Shown piece by piece: positions 1-10,611 of a DNA stretch of 64,000 nt (positions are counted from its first letter, which is position 1; the number at the start of each line of letters is the position of its first letter). The DNA is taken from NCBI GenBank assembly GCA_038320545.1, contig JBBQEI010000022.1:2159-66158 (forward strand), read 5' to 3'. The stretch is from Bacteroidales bacterium (lineage in GTDB: Bacteria > Bacteroidota > Bacteroidia > Bacteroidales > JAAUTT01). A program made the position numbers and the translations under genes. The notes under the pieces are model-generated. The model ran no database searches. It had not been told where the DNA came from and saw only the letters and a list, made by a program, of their open reading frames with translations.

Positions 1-1418
1 ATCCGGATGCTGATTTCCTCATTTTTAAGTCCAAGATCATTTAAAATGATTTCTATTTTATCCACCAGCGAAGGTAAATATCGCTCAGCCTCAGCAAAGG
101 CCAGTGGACACAGTGGTAAAGAGGCACATGCCAGGGAATTTAACCTCAACCCGGAAGTGGTTGCAGGATGAAAAATATTATATTTCTTCAGTATTCCTTC
201 GATAAATGGTTTCGCATCGTTCGAAATGTTCGCAAGTATAATATTCTGATTAGGTGTTAACCGTACATCCCCGTCGAGCATCTGAACGGCTTCTTTTATG
301 GCGGTTTTAAGCTTCATAGTCTCAGTGTCGCGAATTCTTCCACCTTCAATAAATAAAGTAATGCTCCAGCGACCATTGCTTCCTTTATGCCAACCATAAC
401 GATCGCCATTTCGAACAAATTTATACGACTTTTCACCCTGCAGCTCCCAACCGAGCCGCAAATGCAGCTCCTTCTGAAAATTATCCAATCCTAAACGATC
501 GAGGGTATATTTTAAGCGCGATAACTTCCTGTTTTCCCTGTTTCCGTTATCGCGTTGAATTTTAAGTACCTCTTCAGCCACAGCCAGCGCTTTATCTGTA
601 GTAACAAAACCCAAAGCACTGGCTAACCTTGGATAGGTTTCGGGTGTTCCGAAAGTCATCCCCATACCACCTCCTGCATATACATTAAACCCAGAAAGCT
701 TCCCATTCTCAACGATGGCAACAAAACCCAGATCGTTCGAAAAAATATCGGTATCGTTGTATGGCGGAATGGCAAAGGCAATTTTAAATTTCCGCGGTAA
801 ATAGGTTTTCCCATAAATAGGTTCAACATCTTCGGAAGGTGTAGAATATTGAAGGTCATCGTTGAGCCATATTTCGTAATATGCCTTGGTTTGGGGCGTG
901 AAATGCCGGCTCATCAGCCTGGCCATTTCGTAAACTTCCTGGTGAACCGGCGAATCGTATGGATTTGGATTACACATCACATTGCGGTTAACATCGCCAC
1001 AGGCAGCAATGGAATCCATCAGGTAATTGTTTATTTTCTTCATAGTTGTTTTCAGGTTTCTTTTCAATACCCCGTGTAATTGAAAAGCCTGACGGGTGGT
1101 CACTTTAATGGTACCATTGGCATGCTGGTCCGAAAGCCTGTCGATTTGAAGATATTGCGATGGAGAAGCAATACCGCCCGGAACACGAACCCTGATCATA
1201 AAGGAATACAATGGTTCGAGCTTCTGCTTTTTGCGTTCGGTATCCAGGTCGCGATCAGATTGCTGATAAGTGCCATGAAACTTGATTAAAGTTGTATCAT
1301 CGCCCAGCAAAGCACCGGTTGTATCTTCCAGGATGCTTTCCTTCAATGTTCCCCGCAGGTAGTTGCTCTTTTCTTTGATGATCTCGACTTCCGAGAGTTT
1401 TGGTTTTTCTGTTGACAT
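1..1418 (-). CDS. cysI: Assimilatory sulfite reductase hemoprotein (beta) subunit, partial; the 3' end runs off the window
   Basis: Not in the ORF track. Manual translation from ATG at 1418 gives MSTEKPKLSEVEIIKEKSNYLRGTL...LIKFHGTYQQSDRD...FMIRVRVPGG...TTRQAFQLHG...ACGDVNRN...YLPRKFK...ACASLPLCPLA, which are the CysI motifs. It lies directly downstream of cysJ. Confidence 0.95.
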   Translation of the reverse strand, partial: MSTEKPKLSEVEIIKEKSNYLRGTLKESILEDTTGALLGDDTTLIKFHGTYQQSDRDLDTERKKQKLEPLYSFMIRVRVPGGIASPSQYLQIDRLSDQHANGTIKVTTRQAFQLHGVLKRNLKTTMKKINNYLMDSIAACGDVNRNVMCNPNPYDSPVHQEVYEMARLMSRHFTPQTKAYYEIWLNDDLQYSTPSEDVEPIYGKTYLPRKFKIAFAIPPYNDTDIFSNDLGFVAIVENGKLSGFNVYAGGGMGMTFGTPETYPRLASALGFVTTDKALAVAEEVLKIQRDNGNRENRKLSRLKYTLDRLGLDNFQKELHLRLGWELQGEKSYKFVRNGDRYGWHKGSNGRWSITLFIEGGRIRDTETMKLKTAIKEAVQMLDGDVRLTPNQNIILANISNDAKPFIEGILKKYNIFHPATTSGLRLNSLACASLPLCPLAFAEAERYLPSLVDKIEIILNDLGLKNEEISIR

Positions 1419-1713: not shown

Positions 1714-3543
1714 TCAATACACATCTTCCTGATACCTCTTATGCTTTCTTAAATTCTGCACAAATTCCCTTGCCTGCTCATGGCTTAATTGTTTCTGATC
1801 GGATACAATATCAATAATTGTGTTGAGTACGTCTTTCGCCATATGCTTCATATCGCCACAAACATAAATGAAAGCACCATCGTCAATCCATTTCATAACT
1901 TCCACCGACTGCTCCTTGAGTTTATGTTGTACATAATACTTATCTCTCTGATCGCGCGAAAATGCCACCGAAAGATTTGCCAGTAATCCTTTTTTCTTGT
2001 AATCCAGCCATTCGGTCTGATAGAGAAAGTCGGTGGTAAAATGCTGATCACCAAAAAATAACCAGTTTTTCCCTTTCGAACCGGTCTCTGCTCTATATTG
2101 TGTGAATGCCCTGAAGGGAGCGATGCCCGTTCCCGGGCCAATCATGATGATTGCCGCCGAAGGATCTACCGGTAAACGGAAAGCATCATTGGTTTCGATG
2201 TAAACTTTTACCTTATCGCCCACATTGGAACTATCGGCCAGAAAACCTGAGCAGATGCCGTTTTTCAACCGGTTGCTATGGGTATATCTCAATGCGGCAG
2301 CGGTAACATGGACTTCATCGGGATAAGCCTCATAAGCTGATGAAATAGAATATAACCTAGGTTGAAGATTACGGAGTATCGAAGTCAATCCTTGTGCATC
2401 GTAAGGAAAAGGGTAATCTTTAAGCATATCATAAACATCGGCACCATATGTAAATTTGGCAAGTTTGCCGGTATCAGCTAAAATAGCAGAAAGTTCAGGA
2501 CTCTTAATATTTTGATTATGTTTTTCAATGGTATCGCGGCTTAAAATACCAATTTCAAAATTCTCAGTTAATGCATTTCTCAGGGCGGTAGTTGTTGATA
2601 TAGCTGTAACAATATCTTCGCCTGAAATCCCGGTTAATGAAAGCAAGCTATCCACCAGATTTCTCGAATTAACCGGGAGAACTCCCAAGGAATCACCGGG
2701 TTTATATACAAGTCCCGAATCCTTTAAAGAAATTTCGAAATGATAGGTTTCTTTCAAAGAGCCTTTCCCATTCAATTTTATTTTTTCAAGTATTTCAGCA
2801 TTAAACGGATGCGATTTCCCGAATATCGGAACAGTGGCCTTTACAGCAGAACCATTCAATAACTTGGAAGCAATGGGCTTAGAGCCTTCAAATTTTTCGA
2901 GCAGTGAGTTAATCCATTCCCCGGTGACAGGCAGAAAATCTACATCACAGTCGTGACGATCTGCCAGGCGCTTTGCGCCAAGCTCCCATAGTTTTTTATC
3001 GATATCCGCACCTGTTTTGCAGAATTGGGCATAGCTTTTATCCCCGAGTGCCAATACCGAATAATTAAGGTTTTCTAATTTCGGGGCACGGCTTCCATGA
3101 AGAAAATTATAAAATTCTTCTGCCGCCAGAGGTGGTTCTCCTTCACCATGAGTACTTACAATTACAGCAAGGTTGGTTTCGTTTTTCAGGTTTTTTGGGT
3201 TGTATTCATTCATATCGGCCACCACTGCCTTGATACCTTTTTCAGAAGCTTTTTGCTGAAGAAGCTCGGCGGCTCTGTGGCTGTTTCCGGTACGAGTTCC
3301 AAAAATAATGGTCATCTGCTGTTTCTCTACTTCTTTTGGCTCACTGTGGCCATTCAAATGAGAAACATCCGTGGAAATTCCATTAACACCTAAACGGGCT
3401 TTCTGAGCACCAATGACATATCCTGCCAGGTATCCGCTAAACCATAATAACTGTGTTTCCTGAAAATCGTTTAATACCTTTTGTGCCAGCTCCTGCTGTT
3501 CAGAACTGATGGGAAAGAGCTTAGTGAAATCCTGATTTTCCAT
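1714..3543 (-). CDS. cysJ: Sulfite reductase [NADPH] flavoprotein (alpha) subunit
   Basis: N-terminal LLWFSGY motif, flavodoxin motifs (GTRTGNS, STHGEGEPP, LGDKSY), FAD/NADPH motifs RLYSISS and GPGTGIAPFR, C-terminal RYQEDVY. Confidence 0.96.
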   Translation of the reverse strand: MENQDFTKLFPISSEQQELAQKVLNDFQETQLLWFSGYLAGYVIGAQKARLGVNGISTDVSHLNGHSEPKEVEKQQMTIIFGTRTGNSHRAAELLQQKASEKGIKAVVADMNEYNPKNLKNETNLAVIVSTHGEGEPPLAAEEFYNFLHGSRAPKLENLNYSVLALGDKSYAQFCKTGADIDKKLWELGAKRLADRHDCDVDFLPVTGEWINSLLEKFEGSKPIASKLLNGSAVKATVPIFGKSHPFNAEILEKIKLNGKGSLKETYHFEISLKDSGLVYKPGDSLGVLPVNSRNLVDSLLSLTGISGEDIVTAISTTTALRNALTENFEIGILSRDTIEKHNQNIKSPELSAILADTGKLAKFTYGADVYDMLKDYPFPYDAQGLTSILRNLQPRLYSISSAYEAYPDEVHVTAAALRYTHSNRLKNGICSGFLADSSNVGDKVKVYIETNDAFRLPVDPSAAIIMIGPGTGIAPFRAFTQYRAETGSKGKNWLFFGDQHFTTDFLYQTEWLDYKKKGLLANLSVAFSRDQRDKYYVQHKLKEQSVEVMKWIDDGAFIYVCGDMKHMAKDVLNTIIDIVSDQKQLSHEQAREFVQNLRKHKRYQEDVY

Positions 3544-3544
3544 T

Positions 3545-4831
3545 TTATAAATACTTTGTTGTTTCTAAAATTTGTGAAATTGCTTCCGTTGTTTTTTGCA
3601 AATCGTTCCCTGAATGTGCATTGGAAATAAAATTTGCTTCATAACCAGAGGGAGAAAAATAAATGCCTTTCTTTAATAATTCAATATAGAACTTGCTAAA
3701 CATAAAGTGATCTGCATTTTGTGCTGAGGTAAAATCATCCACCCGTTTCTTTGAAAAATAGAGTGTAAACATATTTTTGAAGCTATTTAACTGAAGGTTA
3801 TGCTTAAGTGCCAGTTCATTGAAGATCCCAAAAAAAATATCCGAATTCTGTTGAATAGCCTCATAAACTTTCTCATCCTGAAGCATTTTTAAGGATGCAA
3901 TTCCGGCGGCAACAGCAACGGGGTTTCCCGACAGTGTTCCTGCCTGGTAAACGGGGCCATCGGGAGCAATCAACGACATGATTTCAGTATTTGCACCATA
4001 AGCCCCTACCGGAAATCCGCCTCCGATAATTTTTCCAAAGGTGGTAATGTCGGGTTGAATGCCCAGTAATTTTTGAACTCCTCCAAAACAGAAGCGAAAC
4101 CCGGTAATTACCTCATCAAATATCAACAGGCTTCCATATTTTCGGGTAAGATGACGAACAAACTCCAGAAATCCTTTTTGAGGAATTACCACGCCCATAT
4201 TGGCAGGTATAGGTTCCACAATGACAGTTGCAATGTGATTGTTATACTTTTCGAATACTTTCTGAATGGCTTCCGGATTGTTAAAAGGAACACTTATGGT
4301 GCTGTTTACAACCATCTCAGGAACTCCTTTGCTCGAAGAACTGGTTTGTCCGGCTAATCCCGAGCCTGCATTCACCAGTAACATATCGGAATGACCATGA
4401 TAGCAACCATCGAATTTTACAATGATATCCCGACCGGTAAAGGCTCTGGCAAGACGAATGGCGCTCATCACTGCTTCAGTACCGGAACTTACCAAACGAA
4501 CTTTTTTTATGGAAGGGGTAGACTGGCAAATTAATGAAGCCAACTCTGTTTCCTGCAAAGTAGGTGCACCAAAGCTGGAGCCATTATCAATAGCTGCCTT
4601 TGCGGCTTCAGCAACCTGAGGATGTGCATGGCCTAAAATACCAACTCCCCACGACAGGCAATAATCAATATAGTTGTTCCCGTCAATATCTTCCAAAGTG
4701 GAACCGAAAGCCCTTTTTATAAACACAGGTGGAATTCCGATGCTTTTGAAGGAACGCACGGGACTGTTAACTCCTCCCGGCATCACTTTACAGGCAACTT
4801 GATATGCTTGGGATGATAAATTGTTGTTCAT
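3545..4831 (-). CDS. hemL: Glutamate-1-semialdehyde 2,1-aminomutase
   Basis: MPGGVNSPVR, GCYHGHSD, IFDEVITGFR, FGKIIGGGFP and YQAGTLSGNP. The start is placed at MNNNL (4831) because the extension to 4861 runs into a repeat. Confidence 0.96.
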   Translation of the reverse strand: MNNNLSSQAYQVACKVMPGGVNSPVRSFKSIGIPPVFIKRAFGSTLEDIDGNNYIDYCLSWGVGILGHAHPQVAEAAKAAIDNGSSFGAPTLQETELASLICQSTPSIKKVRLVSSGTEAVMSAIRLARAFTGRDIIVKFDGCYHGHSDMLLVNAGSGLAGQTSSSSKGVPEMVVNSTISVPFNNPEAIQKVFEKYNNHIATVIVEPIPANMGVVIPQKGFLEFVRHLTRKYGSLLIFDEVITGFRFCFGGVQKLLGIQPDITTFGKIIGGGFPVGAYGANTEIMSLIAPDGPVYQAGTLSGNPVAVAAGIASLKMLQDEKVYEAIQQNSDIFFGIFNELALKHNLQLNSFKNMFTLYFSKKRVDDFTSAQNADHFMFSKFYIELLKKGIYFSPSGYEANFISNAHSGNDLQKTTEAISQILETTKYL

Positions 4832-5023
4832 AATTTTAAATTCTTTGTTTAGTTGTCTCAAAAGTCAATTATCGCTCAATATTCAGCTTTCTATTGTCAG
4901 GCGGAGCGGAGTCGAAGCCTTTCTATAGTTTTGAGACAATCTCGTTTATTTTGCAGGCGGAGCCTGCGGGTATAAATACGACTGAGGTAAAACCTCAGCC
5001 GAACGTACATCAAACCCATGTTG

Positions 5024-6031
5024 TTATTTTGCTAAAACCCTGGCTATCACGTTTGCATAATAACTGATAATCCAATCGGCACCGGCACGTTTAATGGCGG
5101 TATTAATTTCGATTACAACCTGTTCTTCATTTAATATTCCGGCTGAGGCAGCAGCTTTTATCATCATATATTCGCCCGAAACATGATAAGCAACCACAGG
5201 AACTTCAGTAAACTTTGTTTTTGCCCGATTAATAATATCGAGATAAGTATGTGCTGGTTTTACCATCAGAAATTCGGCGCCTTCTTTCAGATCGGCTTCC
5301 ATTTCGTCCATGGCCTGACTGGCAGAGCGGTAATCCATCTGGTAAGTTTTGCGATCGCCAAATGCTGGTTTGGATTTGGCTGCACCCCGGAAAGGTCCGT
5401 ATAACCCCGAAGCAAATTTGGCAGAATATGCCAGGATCTTTACCCGGTTGAAGCCATGTGTATCCAACATTTGACGAATGGCCCAAACCTGTCCGTCCAT
5501 CATGGCTGATGGAGCAACAATGTCGGCACCAGCCCGCGCATTTTCCAATGCCATCCTTGCAAGAGGTTCCAGGGATTTATCATTATTGATGATTTCACCA
5601 TCCAATATACCGCAATGTCCATGTGAAGTATATGCACAGAGACATATATCGGTTATCACCAGTATCGGGTAATGTTCCTTTATCAGCTTTATTGCGATAT
5701 TCACAGGATTTTCGGGCGAAGCTGAGAAGCTGCCGGTTTCATCTTTGCGCGATTCTTCAACAACCCCGAACAACAAAATTTTATTAATTCCAAGGGCTAC
5801 AGGTTCTTCCAATTCCTGCATTAGCATATCTGGTGAGAGGTGATAAACTCCATGGAGAGAAGCGATTTCCTTTTTAATCTGCTTTCCTTCAACAATGAAA
5901 AAAGGTAAAACAAAATCATTGGCCGATAGCTTCACTTCTGCATGAAAATCCCTTGTTAAAGCATCTGTTCTCAAATGCCTGAACCTTTTAAAAGGGGCAA
6001 AACTAGATATATAAGGCTGAATTTCTTTCAT
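5024..6031 (-). CDS. hemB: Porphobilinogen synthase (ALA dehydratase)
   Basis: DICLCAYTSHGHCG zinc site, APSAMMDG, YGPFR, GDRKTYQMD, MVKPA, AYHVSGEY. Confidence 0.97.
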   Translation of the reverse strand: MKEIQPYISSFAPFKRFRHLRTDALTRDFHAEVKLSANDFVLPFFIVEGKQIKKEIASLHGVYHLSPDMLMQELEEPVALGINKILLFGVVEESRKDETGSFSASPENPVNIAIKLIKEHYPILVITDICLCAYTSHGHCGILDGEIINNDKSLEPLARMALENARAGADIVAPSAMMDGQVWAIRQMLDTHGFNRVKILAYSAKFASGLYGPFRGAAKSKPAFGDRKTYQMDYRSASQAMDEMEADLKEGAEFLMVKPAHTYLDIINRAKTKFTEVPVVAYHVSGEYMMIKAAASAGILNEEQVVIEINTAIKRAGADWIISYYANVIARVLAK

Positions 6032-7976
6032 ATGCTTCTTGTGTTTGTTCTCCTCTGGTAACTACTTTAATGTGAAAAGGAATTTCGCCATAATGTTTCA
6101 AAAAGCTTTTAACTCCCGAAGGCGAAGTAAATACGATGATATCCATACCGGATAAATCAATTTTTTCGATCTTTTTTACGGCCTGGGTGTAGTAAACCGT
6201 AATAATGTGAACATTGTTACTCAATGCACGCAAACCGTCGGGCAGGATATTCAGGGCTATATCCGAACGGGGAATCAGAATTTCTTCGCCCGTAATGCCT
6301 TTCGACCTGAAAAGTTCAATAATACCCCTTGAAGAATCAAGTTCAGGCTGAAGGTGAGGAATAATACCATGTTTCTGAAGTTCGTCCGTGGTAACTTCAC
6401 CAATCGAAATAATTAAATTAGAGTTTAAGGAATCAACATTGGCTCCGATGGAATAAACCCATTCCATAAAGAATTTAACACTGTTGCGGCTTGTAAATAT
6501 GATATACTTATAATTGTACACATGTTTGATGAACTTAAAAAAATCGCAGGGCATTTCGGTGGGTATAATCTCGATAAGAGGTTGGTGGATTACATTTCCC
6601 AACTCCTGGTACTGGTCGGCTGTAAGTCCTGTTACAAGTACATTTGGTCTGGATTTCATTATATTTCTGTTTTTAATGGTTTTACTAATTATAATGACTG
6701 AAGGCGACAATGTTACGTCGGGCAAATTCCCGAGATTTGTAAAGCTTACCCTGGCATAAGGCTGGGTGGCATTGGTGATAATGGCCGCCGGAGTCTCCGG
6801 AAGAACGCCATTGGCAAGGACTTTTTCCCGAAGTTCTTTCAAATTGGAGGCACCCATGTAATAAACCAAAGTATCCACATGTGGAACAACAATTTCCTTT
6901 TGTGAAGAAGCCGTAATGAAGGCTACTGACGAAGATTCTCCCCTGCTAGTAAGCGGAATTGCTGCCTGTGCCGCAGCTCCCACTGCTGCCGTAATTCCCG
7001 GGATTACTTCAGGAACAATCAGCCTTCGGTGAAGATATTCGTATTCTTCGCCGCCACGACCAAAAATAAATGGATCGCCCCCTTTTAAACGAACAGTTAT
7101 CTTTCCTGAAATAACGGAATTGTAAAGCAGCTCATTTATCTCATCCTGAGTATGGGAATGGTTTCCTTTCCGTTTTCCGACATATATTTTTTCGCCGGAG
7201 AAATTTTGCAAACAGGTCTTTTCAATCAGGTCGTCATAATAAATAGCATCAGCTTTTTCCAGGGCACGATGGGCTTTAACGGTAATTAGCTCAGGATCGC
7301 CTGGGCCAAAACCTGCCAGGTAAATCTTCCCGTAATTCTTCCGGATATCCAATTCCGAAAATAACTCCGGTAATTTCTTATTACCCTCTTTAGCCACAAT
7401 GGCCAAATGACCCTGAAGCGGATGGGTTTCGAAAGGTAAAATCTCAGCTATTTCAGCATCCAGACCTAAACGCCTTAATGCACAGGTGGCAACCACCACG
7501 GCATCGGCAACTCCTTTTTCAATGAGGGAGATTCTTTCTTCGATGGTGCCACGGATGCTGACGATTTTAGCATCGGGTCGTGCTTGTTTAATGCTTTCTG
7601 CCCTGGATAAGGAACTGGTGCCAATGCGAGGATTGGCATGCAATTCATTTAATTTTAAATTATTGATGCTAACCAAAGAATCGGTGCGATCTATCGCCTC
7701 CGTCAATGCAATCACTTCAAGACCTGCCGGAATAGGATAAGGCAGATCTTTGGCCGAATGCACAGCAATGTCAGCTTCATTTCTAAGGAGAGCATCGTCG
7801 AGTTCACGGGTAAAAAAATCAGGGATATCGCAATTCTCCAATGGTATCTGCTTGTTCTTATCGCCAAGCGATTCAATGGCGTTTACCTGAAATTCCATTC
7901 CGGGTAGAAAAGCTTTAATCTCTTCGGCCTGAACCAATGACAAACGGCTATTTCTGCATATTAACCTGATTTTCAT
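6003..7976 (-). CDS. Triple fusion of truncated hydroxymethylbilane synthase (HemC), uroporphyrinogen-III C-methyltransferase (CobA/SUMT) and uroporphyrinogen-III synthase (HemD)
   Basis: aa 1-~210 HemC (FTRELD, DIAVHSAKDLP, IGTSSLSR, IRGTIEER); aa ~217-435 SUMT (GFGPGDPELIT, RLKGGDPFIFGRGGEE, PGITA); aa ~445-657 HemD (FTSRNSV, IGEVT, FTSPSGV). Confidence 0.92.
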   Translation of the reverse strand: MKIRLICRNSRLSLVQAEEIKAFLPGMEFQVNAIESLGDKNKQIPLENCDIPDFFTRELDDALLRNEADIAVHSAKDLPYPIPAGLEVIALTEAIDRTDSLVSINNLKLNELHANPRIGTSSLSRAESIKQARPDAKIVSIRGTIEERISLIEKGVADAVVVATCALRRLGLDAEIAEILPFETHPLQGHLAIVAKEGNKKLPELFSELDIRKNYGKIYLAGFGPGDPELITVKAHRALEKADAIYYDDLIEKTCLQNFSGEKIYVGKRKGNHSHTQDEINELLYNSVISGKITVRLKGGDPFIFGRGGEEYEYLHRRLIVPEVIPGITAAVGAAAQAAIPLTSRGESSSVAFITASSQKEIVVPHVDTLVYYMGASNLKELREKVLANGVLPETPAAIITNATQPYARVSFTNLGNLPDVTLSPSVIIISKTIKNRNIMKSRPNVLVTGLTADQYQELGNVIHQPLIEIIPTEMPCDFFKFIKHVYNYKYIIFTSRNSVKFFMEWVYSIGANVDSLNSNLIISIGEVTTDELQKHGIIPHLQPELDSSRGIIELFRSKGITGEEILIPRSDIALNILPDGLRALSNNVHIITVYYTQAVKKIEKIDLSGMDIIVFTSPSGVKSFLKHYGEIPFHIKVVTRGEQTQEAYERNSALYI

Positions 7977-7984
7977 AATGAATT

Positions 7985-8893
7985 TTATTTAATCAAACTT
8001 AATTCGGAAAAGGTGGTGGTCAGGTTTCTTCTATCCTGATATTCCAAAAACCTTTTCACTTCCTCTTCAATAATCATTTCTGCTTTTTGAATTTCTTCAA
8101 TTCTTATGGCTTTATTTCCATTTACCTGATTTTCAATCTGTTTTAACCCATAATATGTTATTTCCGGTAAAGTCTGAACTTCCGGTTCTACATCGTTGGG
8201 TACTGCCAAATCGAATATCAACAGGGAATGGTTTGCAGCTATGTGTTCCTTCCGGATAATGGCGTGAGGTGCCGAAGTTCCAGAAATAATGATATCCGCT
8301 TGACCCAAAGCTGATTTTAGATGATCCAGTTTATAGGCTTTGCAGTTTATTTGATTTCCCAATTCCAAAGCCTTTTCGAAATTGCGGTTGCACAGCAAAA
8401 ACGAATCCTGAACATTATCTTTAAGAAAATTCATGATAGTGCGGTTCATTTTGTTGATTCCTACAAATGCAAAACGTTTATTTTGGTAGCCGGTCACTAG
8501 CTCTTTGATAATTTCAACTACAGCCTGGCTATGCGACATCGCTCCGCGCGAAAGAGCAGTTTCGGTGCGTACTCTTTTCCCGGTAAGAAATGCCCATTGG
8601 AAAAGACGATGAATCGCTGAATCTAATTTATATTTTGAAGATGCCTGCTGATAAGCCTCTTTCACCTGTCCCTGTATAAAAGTTTCGCCAATAAAAACCG
8701 AATCCAGGCCGCTGATTAATCTGAACAGATGATAAATTATTTGGTCAGGTACCAAACCCTTTCCGGAATAAAACTCGACACGGTTACAGGTGTGAATAAG
8801 TACGCCTGGTTCCCCTGAGCTTTTCATCTGACTTAGAAGATGTTCACGGTCGTTATTTCTAATTTTATAATCGGCTTTCTTAAATTGAATCAT
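7985..8893 (-). CDS. hemA: Glutamyl-tRNA reductase, compact form
   Basis: HTCNRVE catalytic motif, SGLDSVFIGETFIQGQVK, GKRVRTET, SGTSAPH, DLAVPND. The likely start is MIQFKK at 8893, overlapping the upstream stop. Confidence 0.9.
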   Translation of the reverse strand: MIQFKKADYKIRNNDREHLLSQMKSSGEPGVLIHTCNRVEFYSGKGLVPDQIIYHLFRLISGLDSVFIGETFIQGQVKEAYQQASSKYKLDSAIHRLFQWAFLTGKRVRTETALSRGAMSHSQAVVEIIKELVTGYQNKRFAFVGINKMNRTIMNFLKDNVQDSFLLCNRNFEKALELGNQINCKAYKLDHLKSALGQADIIISGTSAPHAIIRKEHIAANHSLLIFDLAVPNDVEPEVQTLPEITYYGLKQIENQVNGNKAIRIEEIQKAEMIIEEEVKRFLEYQDRRNLTTTFSELSLIK

Positions 8894-9350
8894 TTTCGAG
8901 GAAGTTTTTAATTCGGTTTCGAAGTTCGATGGATTCATAAACATCCTGTGCATTGGAGGTTACAGCCACACTCAGGTAATTTTTCCGGTAAATAGCCGGA
9001 GAAACAAAATCGCACCGGGAAGGATTATCTACCACATTGACAAGTATACCAATATCATGCGCATCGTTTAAAACCTTTTCGTTTAATTCCGGGATATTGG
9101 TACAGGCGTATACCAGGGTTGAACCTCTCAGATCAGAAGGATCATATTGCTTTTCCTGATAGCTAATTCCGGCATTTTTAATTTGTTCGGATACCTCCAA
9201 TGCTACCACCTGTACATTATCAGCATATTGCTGCAAGCTTTGAATTTTATGCCAGGCAATTCGTCCACCTCCGATGAGCACAATCTTCTTCCCCTTTACA
9301 TCAATGGCCAGGGGCATAAATGTTTTATTAAAATTCCGGTCAGATAACAT
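8880..9350 (-). CDS. Precorrin-2 dehydrogenase / sirohydrochlorin ferrochelatase (SirC / CysG N-terminal / Met8p-like)
   Basis: FMPLAIDVKGKKIVLIGGGRIAWHK Rossmann motif and LVNVVDNPSRCDFVSPA. The start at 9350 overlaps the DUF2061 stop. Confidence 0.9.
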   Translation of the reverse strand: MLSDRNFNKTFMPLAIDVKGKKIVLIGGGRIAWHKIQSLQQYADNVQVVALEVSEQIKNAGISYQEKQYDPSDLRGSTLVYACTNIPELNEKVLNDAHDIGILVNVVDNPSRCDFVSPAIYRKNYLSVAVTSNAQDVYESIELRNRIKNFLENDSI

Positions 9351-9567
9351 AATCGTCTTTTCTGGGTTTAGCTTTTCCAAATGAAATGCGGGTCCATGTA
9401 CGTTCGTGCAGGTAATACAAAAACATTTTTGTAATTACTTCAACTGAACTTAAGGTGAGGGCAAGACCTGGCTTACCTGTAATTAGCCAGGCAAGAAAAA
9501 ATGTGTCGACAGTGCCGGTTATTCGCCAGGTGATGGCTTTAACTATACTTCTTCGTTTTTGTTCCAT
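9340..9567 (-). CDS. DUF2061 family small membrane protein
   Basis: RSIVKAITWRITGTVDT...TKMFLYYLHERTW signature; this family is commonly found near sulfur-assimilation genes. Confidence 0.85.
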   Translation of the reverse strand: MEQKRRSIVKAITWRITGTVDTFFLAWLITGKPGLALTLSSVEVITKMFLYYLHERTWTRISFGKAKPRKDDYVI

Positions 9568-9652
9568 TAAAATAAAATGCAAAGGGATACTGAAGGACTT
9601 AATTTGTTACAGCCCTGAAATTAATTGAGATTAAAAAATAGGAAAAATCAGG

Positions 9653-9757
9653 TTAACAGCTGCAACAACAGGTACAATTCCACATACAACAACAATTTAC
9701 GCTGGAGCGTGTGTTGTAGACTTTAAGGGATAAAGTTTGTGGAATAATTGACAGCAT
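9653..9757 (-). CDS. Putative cysteine-rich attenuator leader peptide (34 aa, MLSIIPQTLSLKVYNTRSSVNCCCMWNCTCCCSC)
   Basis: ATG at 9757, TAA at 9653-9655, 8 Cys in the last 13 sense codons. Lies between a promoter and the first gene of a sulfite-reduction operon. Confidence 0.8.
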   Translation of the reverse strand: MLSIIPQTLSLKVYNTRSSVNCCCMWNCTCCCSC

Positions 9758-9778
9758 TTTTAATTATTAGTTCAACTG

Positions 9779-9786
9779 CAAATATA
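9779..9786 (-). promoter_or_regulatory. Bacteroidota sigma-A -7 element (TATATTTG) for the leader and siroheme/cysJI operon
   Basis: Exact TAnnTTTG match followed by CA, 21 nt upstream of the leader ATG. Confidence 0.7.
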
Positions 9787-9978
9787 AGAGAATTATGTCT
9801 GAATATCCCTTATTTTTAAAGAAAAAAATAATAAATTTAATAGTGCTCTAGCACAGTTGATTACCTCATCCAAAATTAAAATCTGTTTTTAATCTTTTGA
9901 AAATTGAAAAAAATACATAAACTTTGGAAACTTTTGGAACAATAATTGTTTCCATAAGAACATTCGTTTTTTAAAATT

Positions 9979-10611
9979 ATGGATGAAGAACTAAAAAATA
10001 TTCTCGACAAAGTAAGAAACCTTTACATCCGATATGGGATAAAAAGTGTTACCATGGACGATGTTGCCCGTGAGCTTGGAATTTCAAAGAAAACATTGTA
10101 TCAGCATGTTATCGATAAGAATGATCTGGTATTTAAGGTTTTTGATCTTGAAATTAATGATAGCTCCAATAAATTTCAATGTTCTTTCAATGAAGAGTCG
10201 AACGCTATTGAACAATTGTTTGATGTACATAAATGGGTGGTAAGCCGCATGAAAGAATATAGCCCTGTTTCGGATTACGATTTAAAAAAATACTTTCCTG
10301 ATCTGTATCGTAAGCACGATAAAATCAGAAGGGAAAGAATTTATGAGTTTATTGTCAATAACATGAGAAAAGGCAAGGAAGAAGGATTATACCGAAGCGA
10401 CCTTGATGTGGAGATTATCTCAAAGATACATGTGTCGCGAATTCAAAATACTTTCGATTCGGATCTTTTAACAAATGAGGAAAAAACATCGCTAAAAGTA
10501 TTTTATGAATTTTTTGTATACCATATCCGTGGTATCGCCAGCGAAAAAGGTATTCAGCTTTTGGAAGAAAAATTAAAGGATAAAGAACTACAGTTAATAT
10601 ATAATCAATAA
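9979..10611 (+). CDS. TetR/AcrR family transcriptional regulator
   Basis: N-terminal HTH GIKSVTMDDVARELGISKKTLY; first gene of the efflux operon. Confidence 0.93.
   Translation: MDEELKNILDKVRNLYIRYGIKSVTMDDVARELGISKKTLYQHVIDKNDLVFKVFDLEINDSSNKFQCSFNEESNAIEQLFDVHKWVVSRMKEYSPVSDYDLKKYFPDLYRKHDKIRRERIYEFIVNNMRKGKEEGLYRSDLDVEIISKIHVSRIQNTFDSDLLTNEEKTSLKVFYEFFVYHIRGIASEKGIQLLEEKLKDKELQLIYNQ

Follow-up and report, generated by a model that had tools for sequence, protein, structure and literature searches.

A cysteine-codon-rich leader ORF as a probable ribosome-stalling attenuator of siroheme and sulfite reductase genes in Bacteroidota

The window analyzed here, a 64,000-nucleotide stretch of a Bacteroidales genome, carries a short leader open reading frame (ORF) with a tail dominated by Cys codons directly ahead of a DUF2061-siroheme-sulfite reductase gene run. 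The comparative evidence described below indicates that this ORF probably functions as a Cys-tRNA-sensing, ribosome-stalling attenuator of these genes. An earlier interpretation made from the DNA letters alone, hereafter the sequence-only reading, had proposed a cysteine-sensing attenuator of this kind in Bacteroidota, and the proposal gains support from the conservation of the Cys tail, from the presence of such leaders at three loci of one genome and from their recurrence, with codons matched to the pathway, at sulfur loci sampled across the phylum.

The leader ORF lies on the minus strand, begins with an ATG at 9757-9755, ends with a TAA at 9655-9653, and was found on re-reading exactly as first described. 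Its first 21 codons contain no Cys, and codons 22-34 comprise eight Cys, one Met and one Trp. The Cys codons form two clusters. Cluster 1 is invariant at the nucleotide level in all four aligned same-genus leaders; in cluster 2 the number and placing of Cys codons differ among relatives and the Cys richness is retained. Among 59,655 ATG-initiated ORFs of 10-60 codons in the whole genome, the leader ORF ranks first in Cys density (8 Cys in 13 codons vs 6 in 13 for the runner-up), and the genome's trinucleotide frequencies predict 0.005 occurrences genome-wide of at least eight Cys codons in 13.

A promoter-like box is present 21 nt ahead of the ATG (9786-9779), as had been reported; it is of the TAnnTTTG type, a consensus described for Bacteroides promoters, and presumably acts as a promoter element. 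No upstream block is better conserved in the alignment of the four genomes, and boxes resembling it also stand ahead of the other leaders described below. The 5' region between box and ATG is short and A-rich, and, judged by the spacing, the transcript would start about a dozen nucleotides ahead of the ATG. On the other side, the reported distance of 85 nt (9652-9568) separates the stop codon from the ATG of the DUF2061 gene at 9567. Gene identities assigned with Pfam and NCBIfam profiles bear out a co-oriented run ending in cysJ-cysI, with the order DUF2061-siroheme-hemALBCD-cysJ-cysI (Table 1). Two gaps of 162 and 295 nt, which contain palindromic repeats, interrupt the run, and cysJ-cysI may or may not share a transcript with its head. 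The leader's other neighbors form a TetR/efflux unit.

Table 1. Features of the leader region and downstream gene run, in window coordinates
Feature	Position	Strand	Remarks
Promoter-like -7 box, TAnnTTTG type	9779..9786	-	read directly; putative promoter
Leader ORF, 34 sense codons + stop	9653..9757	-	translation read from sequence
Cys cluster 1 (codons 22-24) + Met codon	9683..9694	-	proposed stall site
Cys cluster 2 (codons 28, 30-32, Ser 33, Cys 34), up to stop	9656..9676	-	
P1 5' arm (last Cys + Ser codons)	9658..9668	-	pairs with 9604-9614
Spacer, 85 nt, U-rich and G-poor	9568..9652	-	A 21, C 16, G 8, T 40
H2 5' arm, overlaps P1 3' arm	9611..9616	-	pairs with 9594-9599
P1 3' arm	9604..9614	-	most conserved block of the spacer
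H2 3' arm	9594..9599	-	U-rich sequence after; no adjacent U-tract in window
DUF2061 small membrane protein, first in run	9340..9567	-	PF09834, E 1.5e-20; start ATG conserved in alignment
Siroheme synthase N-terminal domain (precorrin-2 dehydrogenase / ferrochelatase type)	8880..9380	-	PF13241; TIGR01470 above cut-off; start uncertain
Glutamyl-tRNA reductase (hemA-like)	7985..8953	-	PF05201, PF01488; start uncertain
hemC-cobA-hemD fusion (cobA = uroporphyrinogen-III C-methyltransferase)	6003..7976	-	PF01379, PF00590, PF02602; NCBIfam
hemB (ALA dehydratase)	5024..6031	-	PF00490, E 1.6e-129
hemL-like class-III aminotransferase	3545..4861	-	PF00202
cysJ, sulfite reductase flavoprotein	1714..3543	-	TIGR01931 above cut-off
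cysI, sulfite reductase hemoprotein	3..1418	-	NF010029 above cut-off; extends past window edge

A Cys-rich short ORF at the same position in related genomes was an expectation of the sequence-only reading, and three genomes of the same genus (G005, G007 and G010) carry one, with synteny kept through cysI. These leaders align at the promoter box, the ATG and the Cys-codon blocks; their N-termini diverge and their Cys arrangements vary. TGT and TGC are both used and interchange between relatives, and in every leader the frame opens with an ATG whose distance from the box is constant and closes right after the Cys codons. A DNA search of the 13 genomes of the family located this leader in these three and the window's genome only. 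Three further same-genus genomes (G008, G009 and G011) possess cysJ-cysI-DUF2061 and lack the leader; no leader ORF was found ahead of cysJ in G008 or G009, and in some same-genus genomes a palindromic operator-like site occupies its place upstream of cysJ. Environmental DNA added little. In one divergent contig every listed change falls outside the Cys part of the leader, an observation of low depth and little weight; four DNA runs compared with the locus gave strain variants only; and a metagenome pattern scan produced 115 stretches, nearly all within repeats or long frames, among which were two G007-type leader copies, one unexplained ORF (L248) and no new covariation variants.

Three Cys-tailed leader ORFs occur in the window's genome, each before a sulfur or cysteine locus. 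The two sisters, picked among the Cys-densest of 10,717 intergenic short ORFs, precede an O-acetylhomoserine sulfhydrylase gene by 85 nt and cysE-cysK by 90 nt; no leader ORF was found upstream of this genome's cysCDN. The three peptides are unrelated in sequence and share one design. Within the genus, 10 of 12 cysE loci are preceded by a short ORF with terminal Cys codons.

The same design recurs well beyond the genus. In phylum-wide samples, a sense ORF with at least four Cys in 10 residues lies upstream of 10 of 29 metY loci, vs none of 29 on the antisense strand and none of 29 downstream, and a Cys-rich short ORF heads the sulfate-assimilation gene run at 8 of 12 cysI loci. The leader is absent at the other 19 metY and four cysI loci, and no short ORF with at least three Cys was found at 18 cysE loci of other families. 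A gene-blind scan with a 22-base pattern against the genomes of about 186,000 species yielded 59 stretches, seven of which are short ORFs upstream of sulfur genes; all seven belong to Bacteroidota and precede metY operons or cobA. Translation of upstream regions, a check proposed with the sequence-only reading, recovered short ORFs of one design, with Cys tails that use TGT as well as TGC and with divergent N-termini, at cysE, metY and cysI loci. Met codons stand in or beside the Cys cluster in 16 of 17 metY leaders, one of 10 cysE leaders and all five DUF2061-operon leaders; judged from these counts, the codon mix tracks the pathway served. At 9 of 20 metY loci examined, SAM-I aptamers adjoin the related ORFs; no SAM aptamer was found at the loci of the window's genus, and L073, L043 and L012 have no gathering-level Rfam match. 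On this comparative record, the window's leader is one of a multi-operon set of predicted Cys or Cys/Met leader ORFs widespread in Bacteroidota.

The RNA between leader ORF and DUF2061 gene is the possible site of output. Measured against 1,638 upstream regions from this genome, the T fraction of the spacer falls at the 94.5th percentile and its C-minus-G value at the 92nd. Two competing pairings that share one segment had been pointed out earlier, 9652-9648 with 9618-9614 and 9616-9611 with 9599-9594, and both are present; the latter is H2. A longer pairing, P1, joins the last Cys and Ser codons to the spacer. In alignment A1 (four sequences), 95.5% of 44 P1 cells are paired, vs 30-57% when the partner is slid, with one compensatory pair, and shuffles equal the observed covariation in 84 of 500 cases. 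H2 is paired in 83.3% of 24 cells with two compensatory pairs in the four sequences (22 of 500 shuffles equal the covariation) and is out of register in G007, where the same 5' segment takes a different 3' partner. The data from these four sequences are consistent with conservation of P1 pairing and stop short of proving it.

No canonical terminator was found within 9300-10100 or in any of 18 same-genus leaders examined, so the earlier statement that no strong intrinsic terminator is present holds for the window's genus: the output element by which classical attenuation is defined is absent there. A covariance search of 9300-10100 against Rfam returned only three chance-level matches (E 3-8, with E up to 10 admitted). 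Folding with and without a ribosome footprint, another check put forward with the sequence-only reading, did not reveal a consistent switch at the downstream start site. The unpaired probability of the start region in the window is 0.57 free vs 0.59 and 0.54 with footprints, and small rises in accessibility with footprints are confined to G005, G007 and G010. The genome encodes Rho. Outside the genus, canonical terminators lie 53-65 nt past the stop in 8 of 19 leaders and 45-65 nt past it in 4 of 9 further ones; by eye, the terminator 5' arm could pair with the last ORF codons in G038, G142 and G197. Equilibrium folding of the terminator-bearing leaders forms the terminator in every state and therefore cannot settle the direction of the switch.

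These elements can be assembled into a model in which the Cys codons would signal to the translating ribosome how much charged tRNA-Cys is available. When cysteine is scarce, the ribosome would stall in Cys cluster 1 (codons 22-24), leaving 9668-9658 free to pair with 9614-9604 as P1; P1 would block H2, and polymerase or expression would proceed into the DUF2061-siroheme-sulfite reductase genes. With ample cysteine, the ribosome would reach the stop codon and cover the P1 5' arm, H2 could form, and expression would be reduced within the U-rich, G-poor spacer. Stalling, switch direction and output step are all inferred. The output that we favor for the window's genus is termination that is either weak or dependent on a factor (Rho); control of translation or of mRNA stability would be the alternative. 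Cys cluster 2 also consists of Cys codons, and a ribosome stalled there would cover P1, a circumstance that the model does not explain.

Other functions can be imagined for a conserved short ORF in this position. It could be translated and needed downstream yet be constitutive and sense no cysteine, for example by loading ribosomes onto an mRNA devoid of Shine-Dalgarno sites or by holding the leader in an unfolded or RNase-protected state. The proximity of the leader to the promoter box, its short A-rich 5' region, the missing canonical terminator and the failure of modelling to produce a structural switch at the start site would all suit such a role. Left unaccounted for under this reading are the conservation of a Cys-codon tail in particular, the placement of these ORFs specifically before sulfur and cysteine genes, and the restriction of added Met codons to metY and sulfide-producing operons; on the whole, we judge the constitutive reading unlikely. 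We hold much the same low opinion of the possibility that the U/G-rich repeats act as RNA, independent of translation, as a protein or sRNA site or as part of an unrecognised riboswitch. The nucleotide invariance of Cys cluster 1 in the four same-genus leaders, the location of the second Cys block within a conserved pairing and the SAM-I aptamers beside related ORFs at metY loci speak for it. Against it stand the ATG and stop kept in all leaders, the interchange of TGT and TGC, N-terminal codons that diverge while the frame stays open, the lack of an Rfam match and the absence of a SAM aptamer at the genus's loci.

The product itself might matter, as a functional Cys-rich micropeptide that binds metal or an iron-sulfur cluster, serves as a RiPP precursor or assists assembly of siroheme or sulfite reductase. 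The peptide is indeed very Cys-rich, and its G005 homologue gives a sub-threshold score of 19.1 bits (cut-off 35) against the streptolysin S TOMM precursor model. The window's peptide, by contrast, matches no Pfam or NCBIfam family, and three different loci are headed by peptides alike in design and unrelated in sequence. According to the sequence-only reading, a stable, metal-bound peptide with conserved Cys spacing would have pointed away from an attenuator and to a metallothionein or RiPP precursor; Cys number and spacing vary, N-termini diverge, and the neighborhood holds sulfur-assimilation genes and the TetR/efflux unit rather than modifying-enzyme, transporter or immunity genes. A micropeptide function is very improbable in our estimation. 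Mere chance, an open frame arising in an AT-rich leader, has in its favor the abundance of short ORFs in this genome; the expected number of such Cys runs, the first rank of this ORF and its recurrence among relatives and phylum-wide, where the controls were clean, refute it as far as sequence statistics allow, and its probability is negligible.

In the classical trp, his, leu and thr attenuators, a leader ORF containing codons for the end product and a set of competing pairings precede the first biosynthetic gene. The window's leader resembles them in having a short ORF, of predicted translation, between a -7 box and the first gene of a biosynthetic run and in its run of cognate codons, eight Cys in the last 13 before an operon that makes siroheme and sulfite reductase. 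Its candidate competing pairings (four sequences), of which P1 overlaps the ORF, would be a further likeness. It differs in the amino acid that it would sense, cysteine, in lacking a hairpin-plus-U-tract terminator in the window and in matching nothing in Rfam, which includes several leader families. The distant Bacteroidota members fit the classical anatomy. A second precedent is tnaC, which senses free tryptophan via its nascent peptide and induces a catabolic operon by Rho-dependent attenuation. As in tnaC, the regulatory ribosome would be at or beside the leader stop and be followed by a terminator-less spacer, an arrangement that fits leaders with Cys codons up to the stop; unlike tnaC, charged tRNA-Cys sensing is proposed here, the genes are biosynthetic and the role of Rho is a candidate one.

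Cys codons would also be read in uORFC-8-2, an upstream ORF with a Cys-Cys pair that precedes cysS in Rhodobacterales and is a candidate ribosome-mediated attenuator (Brewer et al., 2021, PMC8632094). Unlike the window's leader, it carries its two Cys codons within a stem, has a clear terminator, controls a tRNA synthetase gene rather than sulfur assimilation and is described from alpha-proteobacteria only. Closer in form are the Cys leader peptides predicted in Actinobacteria (Seliverstov et al., 2005, PMC1262725), which by that account share with the window's genus Cys runs near the stop, no conserved terminator hairpin and pyrimidine-rich spacers, and for which, on the model of tna, termination by Rho was put forward. 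They belong to another phylum, precede other operons and were predictions only; for one mycobacterial locus, the control was subsequently demonstrated to be translational.

In mycobacteria, polycysteine short-ORF attenuators constitute a ‘Cys ribulon’ in which, as outlined by Canestrari et al. (bioRxiv 10.1101/834739), repression is proposed to lift when ribosomes pause because Cys-tRNA is short, a release demonstrated in M. smegmatis. As in that system, unannotated short ORFs with Cys runs head several cysteine and sulfur operons of one genome, and coordination of the loci by the ribosome rather than by a transcription factor is likewise proposed here. The two systems belong to different phyla and have unrelated sequences. 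According to the same account, the mycobacterial ORFs lie on leaderless mRNAs, whereas a short 5' leader is inferred here from an ATG 21 nt past the -7 box; their mechanism is Shine-Dalgarno unmasking, whereas folding of the window's leader gave no start-site switch; and, unlike them, many Bacteroidota leaders have canonical terminators and many mix Met with Cys codons. Bacteroidota mRNAs are reported to be largely without Shine-Dalgarno sites (PMC6847099). Since translation there proceeds without Shine-Dalgarno pairing, a stalling sensor in this phylum cannot use unmasking of the mycobacterial style, and the terminator-less class could therefore reveal a different output step.

Full-text literature searches returned no description of Cys leader attenuators in Bacteroidota; a related case may be contained in the supplementary tables of PMC9723704. 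That Flavobacterium psychrophilum transcriptome study is said to list, in its supplements, leader-peptide attenuators before amino-acid operons. The kind of mechanism is already known from Actinobacteria, and its occurrence in Bacteroidota, on the outcome of these searches, is apparently undescribed.

A broader interpretation, to which we give an even chance, is that in Bacteroidota a regulon of ribosome-read leader ORFs, with two architectures and pathway-matched codons, governs sulfur assimilation, cysteine synthesis and direct sulfhydrylation. Depending on the pathway, a leader would contain Cys codons alone or a mixture of Cys and Met. One architecture would be classical, with a terminator 45-65 nt past the stop. 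The other, that of the window, would have no terminator and Cys codons extending to the stop, and the pyrimidine-rich spacer would be gated directly by the stalled ribosome, perhaps through tna-like exclusion of Rho or through protection from decay. At metY, leaders would act in series with SAM-I riboswitches, which if true would amount to two-input control by charged tRNA and SAM. The pathway-matched Cys/Met mixes and the tandem SAM riboswitches are ready for experimental follow-up in cultivable Flavobacteriia, Cytophagia and Chitinophagia. The leaders, unannotated and easily recognised, mark sulfur-regulated operons in metagenome-assembled genomes and isolates alike. Regulation of sulfate assimilation and cysteine synthesis in Bacteroidota is poorly described, and these leader ORFs offer a concrete answer that would need no dedicated regulator protein.

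The Cys codons of the window's leader ORF are distributed unevenly: codons 1-21 contain none, and the last 13 comprise eight Cys, one Met and one Trp, the Cys codons falling into two clusters as an extra feature of this leader. The ORF starts 21 nt beyond a TAnnTTTG promoter box and precedes a co-oriented gene run encoding DUF2061, a siroheme synthase N-terminal domain protein, hemA, a hemC-cobA-hemD fusion, hemB, hemL, cysJ and cysI. With all of these hem and cobA domain genes in the run, the entire glutamate-to-siroheme route lies within one presumably sulfur-regulated gene run. The ORF, box, Cys tail, spacer and gene run described in the sequence-only reading were all recovered when the sequence was re-read, as were the two short pairings that it named. 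Its statement that no strong intrinsic terminator is present also agrees with our finding of no canonical terminator in the leader, and the Rfam families searched there gave no match.

Several further features of this region were recorded. The hemC, cobA (uroporphyrinogen-III methyltransferase) and hemD domains share a single frame, and in the same-genus genome G007 a hemA-like frame is apparently joined to them as well, giving 980 residues. Related perfect palindromes, which are REP-like elements, occur in the cysJ-cysI and hemB-hemL gaps, the former also holding short tandem repeats. In environmental contigs from near-identical strains, 4 nt are missing between the -7 box and the leader ATG (window 9775), and the first base past the leader stop is substituted (window 9652).

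Positions and layout of leader-associated features; positions are those of the window unless another locus is named
Feature	Position	Strand	Detail
TAnnTTTG box	9786-9779	minus	read from sequence
Leader ORF	ATG at 9757, TAA at 9655-9653	minus	34 codons, from translation
Spacer	leader stop to DUF2061 ATG (9567)	minus	85 nt
Pairing P1	9668-9658 with 9614-9604	minus	last Cys and Ser codons with most conserved spacer block
Pairing H2	9616-9611 with 9599-9594	minus	5' arm overlaps P1 3' arm
hemC-cobA-hemD fusion	6003-7976	minus	657 residues
cysJ-cysI gap	1419-1713	minus	palindrome, tandem repeats
hemB-hemL gap	4862-5023	minus	palindrome
Leader, contig C80 of the window's genome			5 consecutive Cys codons at end; 85 nt upstream of O-acetylhomoserine/O-acetylserine sulfhydrylase gene (TIGR01326)
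Leader, contig C43 of the window's genome			17 codons, 4 Cys in last 6; 90 nt upstream of cysE, then cysK
Palindrome upstream of cysJ, G008 and G009	L026 6199-6618; L025 2375-3063	minus (L026)	16-17 nt, perfect
Tandem leaders, G181	L315 4697-5060		before cysH-cysD-...-cysJ-cysI run
Short ORF, metagenome contig	L248 22-114	minus	30 codons, two Cys clusters
metY loci L304, L306, L307, L309			leader ORF, terminator, SAM aptamer, terminator, metY
metY loci L281, L282, L284, L125, L113			SAM aptamer, leader ORF, metY

Trinucleotide frequencies of the window's own genome (5.36 Mb, 36.6% G+C, with the window on contig C22) predict 0.005 windows of 13 codons with at least eight Cys over all frames, and the leader ranks first by Cys density among 59,655 ATG-ORFs of 10-60 codons, the runners-up having six. 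A narrower scan of the 10,717 short ORFs overlapping no long frame placed two further leaders of the same design, on contigs C80 and C43, among the Cys-densest. No leader ORF was found at the cysC-cysD-cysN genes of this genome. Another short ORF rich in Cys, located between glyA and a NUDIX-type gene (C3 74915-75001), is probably a gene remnant unrelated to the leaders, its other frame reading like the tail of a metal transporter. When ORFs are disregarded, 13-codon windows with at least seven Cys codons in some frame also occur on contigs C51, C43 (plus strand), C2, C44, C70 and C1.

The DUF2061 protein was found in 20 of 61 relatives searched. In three genomes of the same genus (G005, G007 and G010), its gene again heads the same run through cysI beside the same divergent TetR-efflux unit, with a co-oriented short ORF 85-88 nt upstream whose two Cys clusters flank a Met codon and a few further codons. 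Alignment shows conservation of the promoter box, the ATG, both Cys-codon blocks, one spacer block and the DUF2061 start; conservation does not extend to the N-terminal codons or to most of the spacer. G038, from another family, has a mixed Cys/Met leader ORF followed by a canonical terminator, DUF2061 and cysH. Three other same-genus genomes (G008, G009 and G011) have the order cysJ-cysI-DUF2061. Upstream of cysJ in G008 and G009 no leader ORF is present and a palindrome takes its place; the G011 contig ends inside cysJ, so that this region falls outside the comparison. A promoter-like box stands just upstream of the palindrome, which is conserved in both genomes and resembles a transcription-factor operator. 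A family-wide search (13 genomes in all) yielded no further copies of the window's leader type.

Leaders of this kind also precede other sulfur genes. Ten of 12 same-genus cysE loci carry an upstream short ORF ending in 2-5 Cys codons. Its distance to cysE is 60-90 nt in nine genomes and 193 nt in the tenth, and the peptides are unrelated apart from the Cys ending; at the two loci lacking a leader, cysE directly follows another gene. No Cys-ending short ORF was found at the cysE loci of other families (0/18). In the same-genus leaders (L043-L052) an Arg codon, always CGA, immediately precedes a terminal Cys codon, perhaps because its slow decoding sharpens the stall, or perhaps as one element of a short hairpin around the stop codon. 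At metY, leaders with at least four Cys in 10 residues occur at 3 of 27 assessable loci in near relatives, two more loci having three Cys, and at 10 of 29 in an even phylum sample; neither of two controls, the antisense strand of these regions and the 500 nt that follow the genes, gave any (0/27 in the near relatives and 0/29 in the phylum sample for each). At 9 of the 20 metY loci examined, a Cys/Met leader ORF is in series with a SAM-I aptamer (Rfam RF00162, 49-84 bits), in either order, which suggests that SAM and charged tRNA are both inputs to control. Loci of the window's genus contain no SAM-I aptamer.

The codon composition of these leaders bears on what is sensed. Met codons lie in or beside the Cys cluster in 16 of 17 metY leaders, in all five DUF2061-operon leaders and in one of ten cysE leaders. 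The metY product is homocysteine, sulfite reductase supplies both cysteine and methionine, and cysE-cysK supplies cysteine only. The Met/Cys mix tracks the pathway, a fit that is difficult to account for if the codons themselves are not being read. TGT and TGC swap between relatives, which favours selection acting on codon identity over selection acting on a nucleotide motif.

A gene-blind pattern consisting of the two conserved Cys-codon blocks, scanned over one genome per species (approximately 186,000 species), returned 59 matching stretches. The majority lie in long frames or simple repeats of unrelated phyla. Seven are short ORFs before sulfur genes, every one from Bacteroidota: two same-genus MAGs ('Bacteroidetes bacterium'), Chitinophaga, Saprospiraceae, Cytophagales and two Chitinophagales MAGs, one with its match before metY (with metX-like and hom-like genes) and the second before cobA. 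The same pattern run over metagenome contigs added nothing new; one such contig has a two-cluster ORF 93 nt before a 270-residue gene. The even phylum sample used for metY, of 151 genomes, contains 12 besides the window's with a cysI of this type, and we surveyed 9-16 kb around each. A short ORF with at least three Cys in 10 residues, often with Met, heads the co-oriented run at 8 of the 12 loci, and this loose threshold returned nine other Cys-containing short ORFs elsewhere in the approximately 186 kb surveyed. The first gene of these runs is cysH, cobA, a rhodanese gene or cysI. In G181, a genome with two Met/Cys-rich leader ORFs in tandem, each is followed by its own canonical terminator.

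The leaders adopt two architectures. In the first, 4-13 codons separate the Cys/Met codons from the stop, and a canonical hairpin-plus-U-tract terminator lies 45-65 nt past it; this terminator is present in 8 of 19 non-genus leaders and 4 of 9 of a further set. In three genomes (G038, G142 and G197) the last ORF codons are, by eye, complementary to the terminator 5' arm. With a ribosome at the stop codon this antiterminator would be hidden, and with one held back at the Cys codons it would stay free; we infer that the pairing fits classical attenuator logic, the switching itself being something equilibrium folding cannot show. The second architecture comprises all 18 leaders of the window's genus, in which 0-3 codons separate the Cys codons from the stop and a canonical terminator is lacking (0/18). 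Among 1,638 upstream regions their spacers fall at the 94.5th to 99.9th percentile for U content and the 85th to 97th for C>G skew, and the genome has a Rho gene. In a Chitinophaga metY leader and in the cysE leader of G009, a hairpin that precedes a U-run has its 5' arm built from the Cys codons themselves; a stalled ribosome would block this hairpin directly, making an antiterminator unnecessary.

Two competing pairings, P1 and H2, could couple stalling to output in the window's leader, in a model built on an alignment of four sequences. Across these four genomes 95.5% of 44 P1 cells are paired (30-57% when the partner is slid), and one pair is compensatory; the figures for H2 are 83.3% of 24 cells and two compensatory pairs, and in G007 its 5' segment pairs with a different 3' partner. 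If ribosomes protect approximately 12-15 nt 3' of the A site, stalling with the A site in cluster 1 would leave the ribosome short of the P1 5' arm, and a ribosome at the leader stop codon would cover that arm; given this reach, P1 would behave like an antiterminator and H2 like an off-state hairpin. The leader is likely to be a Cys-tRNA sensor that operates by ribosome stalling. Because a U-rich run directly follows H2 only in G005, and folding with ribosome footprints produced no consistent shift at the start of DUF2061, we limit our commitment to Cys-tRNA sensing and only rank the possible outputs: weak or Rho-dependent termination would come first, translational control second and mRNA-stability control third.

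Earlier accounts place Cys-codon leaders in other phyla. They were predicted in Actinobacteria in 2005 by Seliverstov et al., who proposed Rho, and the leaders described there present the same picture as the second architecture (PMC1262725). One Mycobacterium smegmatis locus, dissected in 2020, is described as a translational attenuator, and the multi-locus mycobacterial set was named a ribulon (10.1101/834739). A Cys-Cys upstream ORF before cysS is reported for Rhodobacterales (PMC8632094), and the main text on Flavobacterium psychrophilum mentions, without detail, leader-peptide attenuation before amino-acid operons (PMC9723704). A full-text literature search (including PMC4833913, PMC6847099 and PMC2965389) turned up no account of Cys or Cys/Met leader ORFs in Bacteroidota, an absence that is not proven since most subscription journals lie outside its coverage. 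The Cys-sensing attenuator that the sequence-only reading proposed for the siroheme and sulfite reductase operon is well supported by the comparative evidence, which presents the leader as a regulator of an established kind, in a phylum for which we found no description of it. Its added interest lies in the phylum-wide occurrence of such leaders, their pathway-matched Cys/Met recipes, the terminator-less form and the tandem arrangement with SAM-I riboswitches (9/20 loci).
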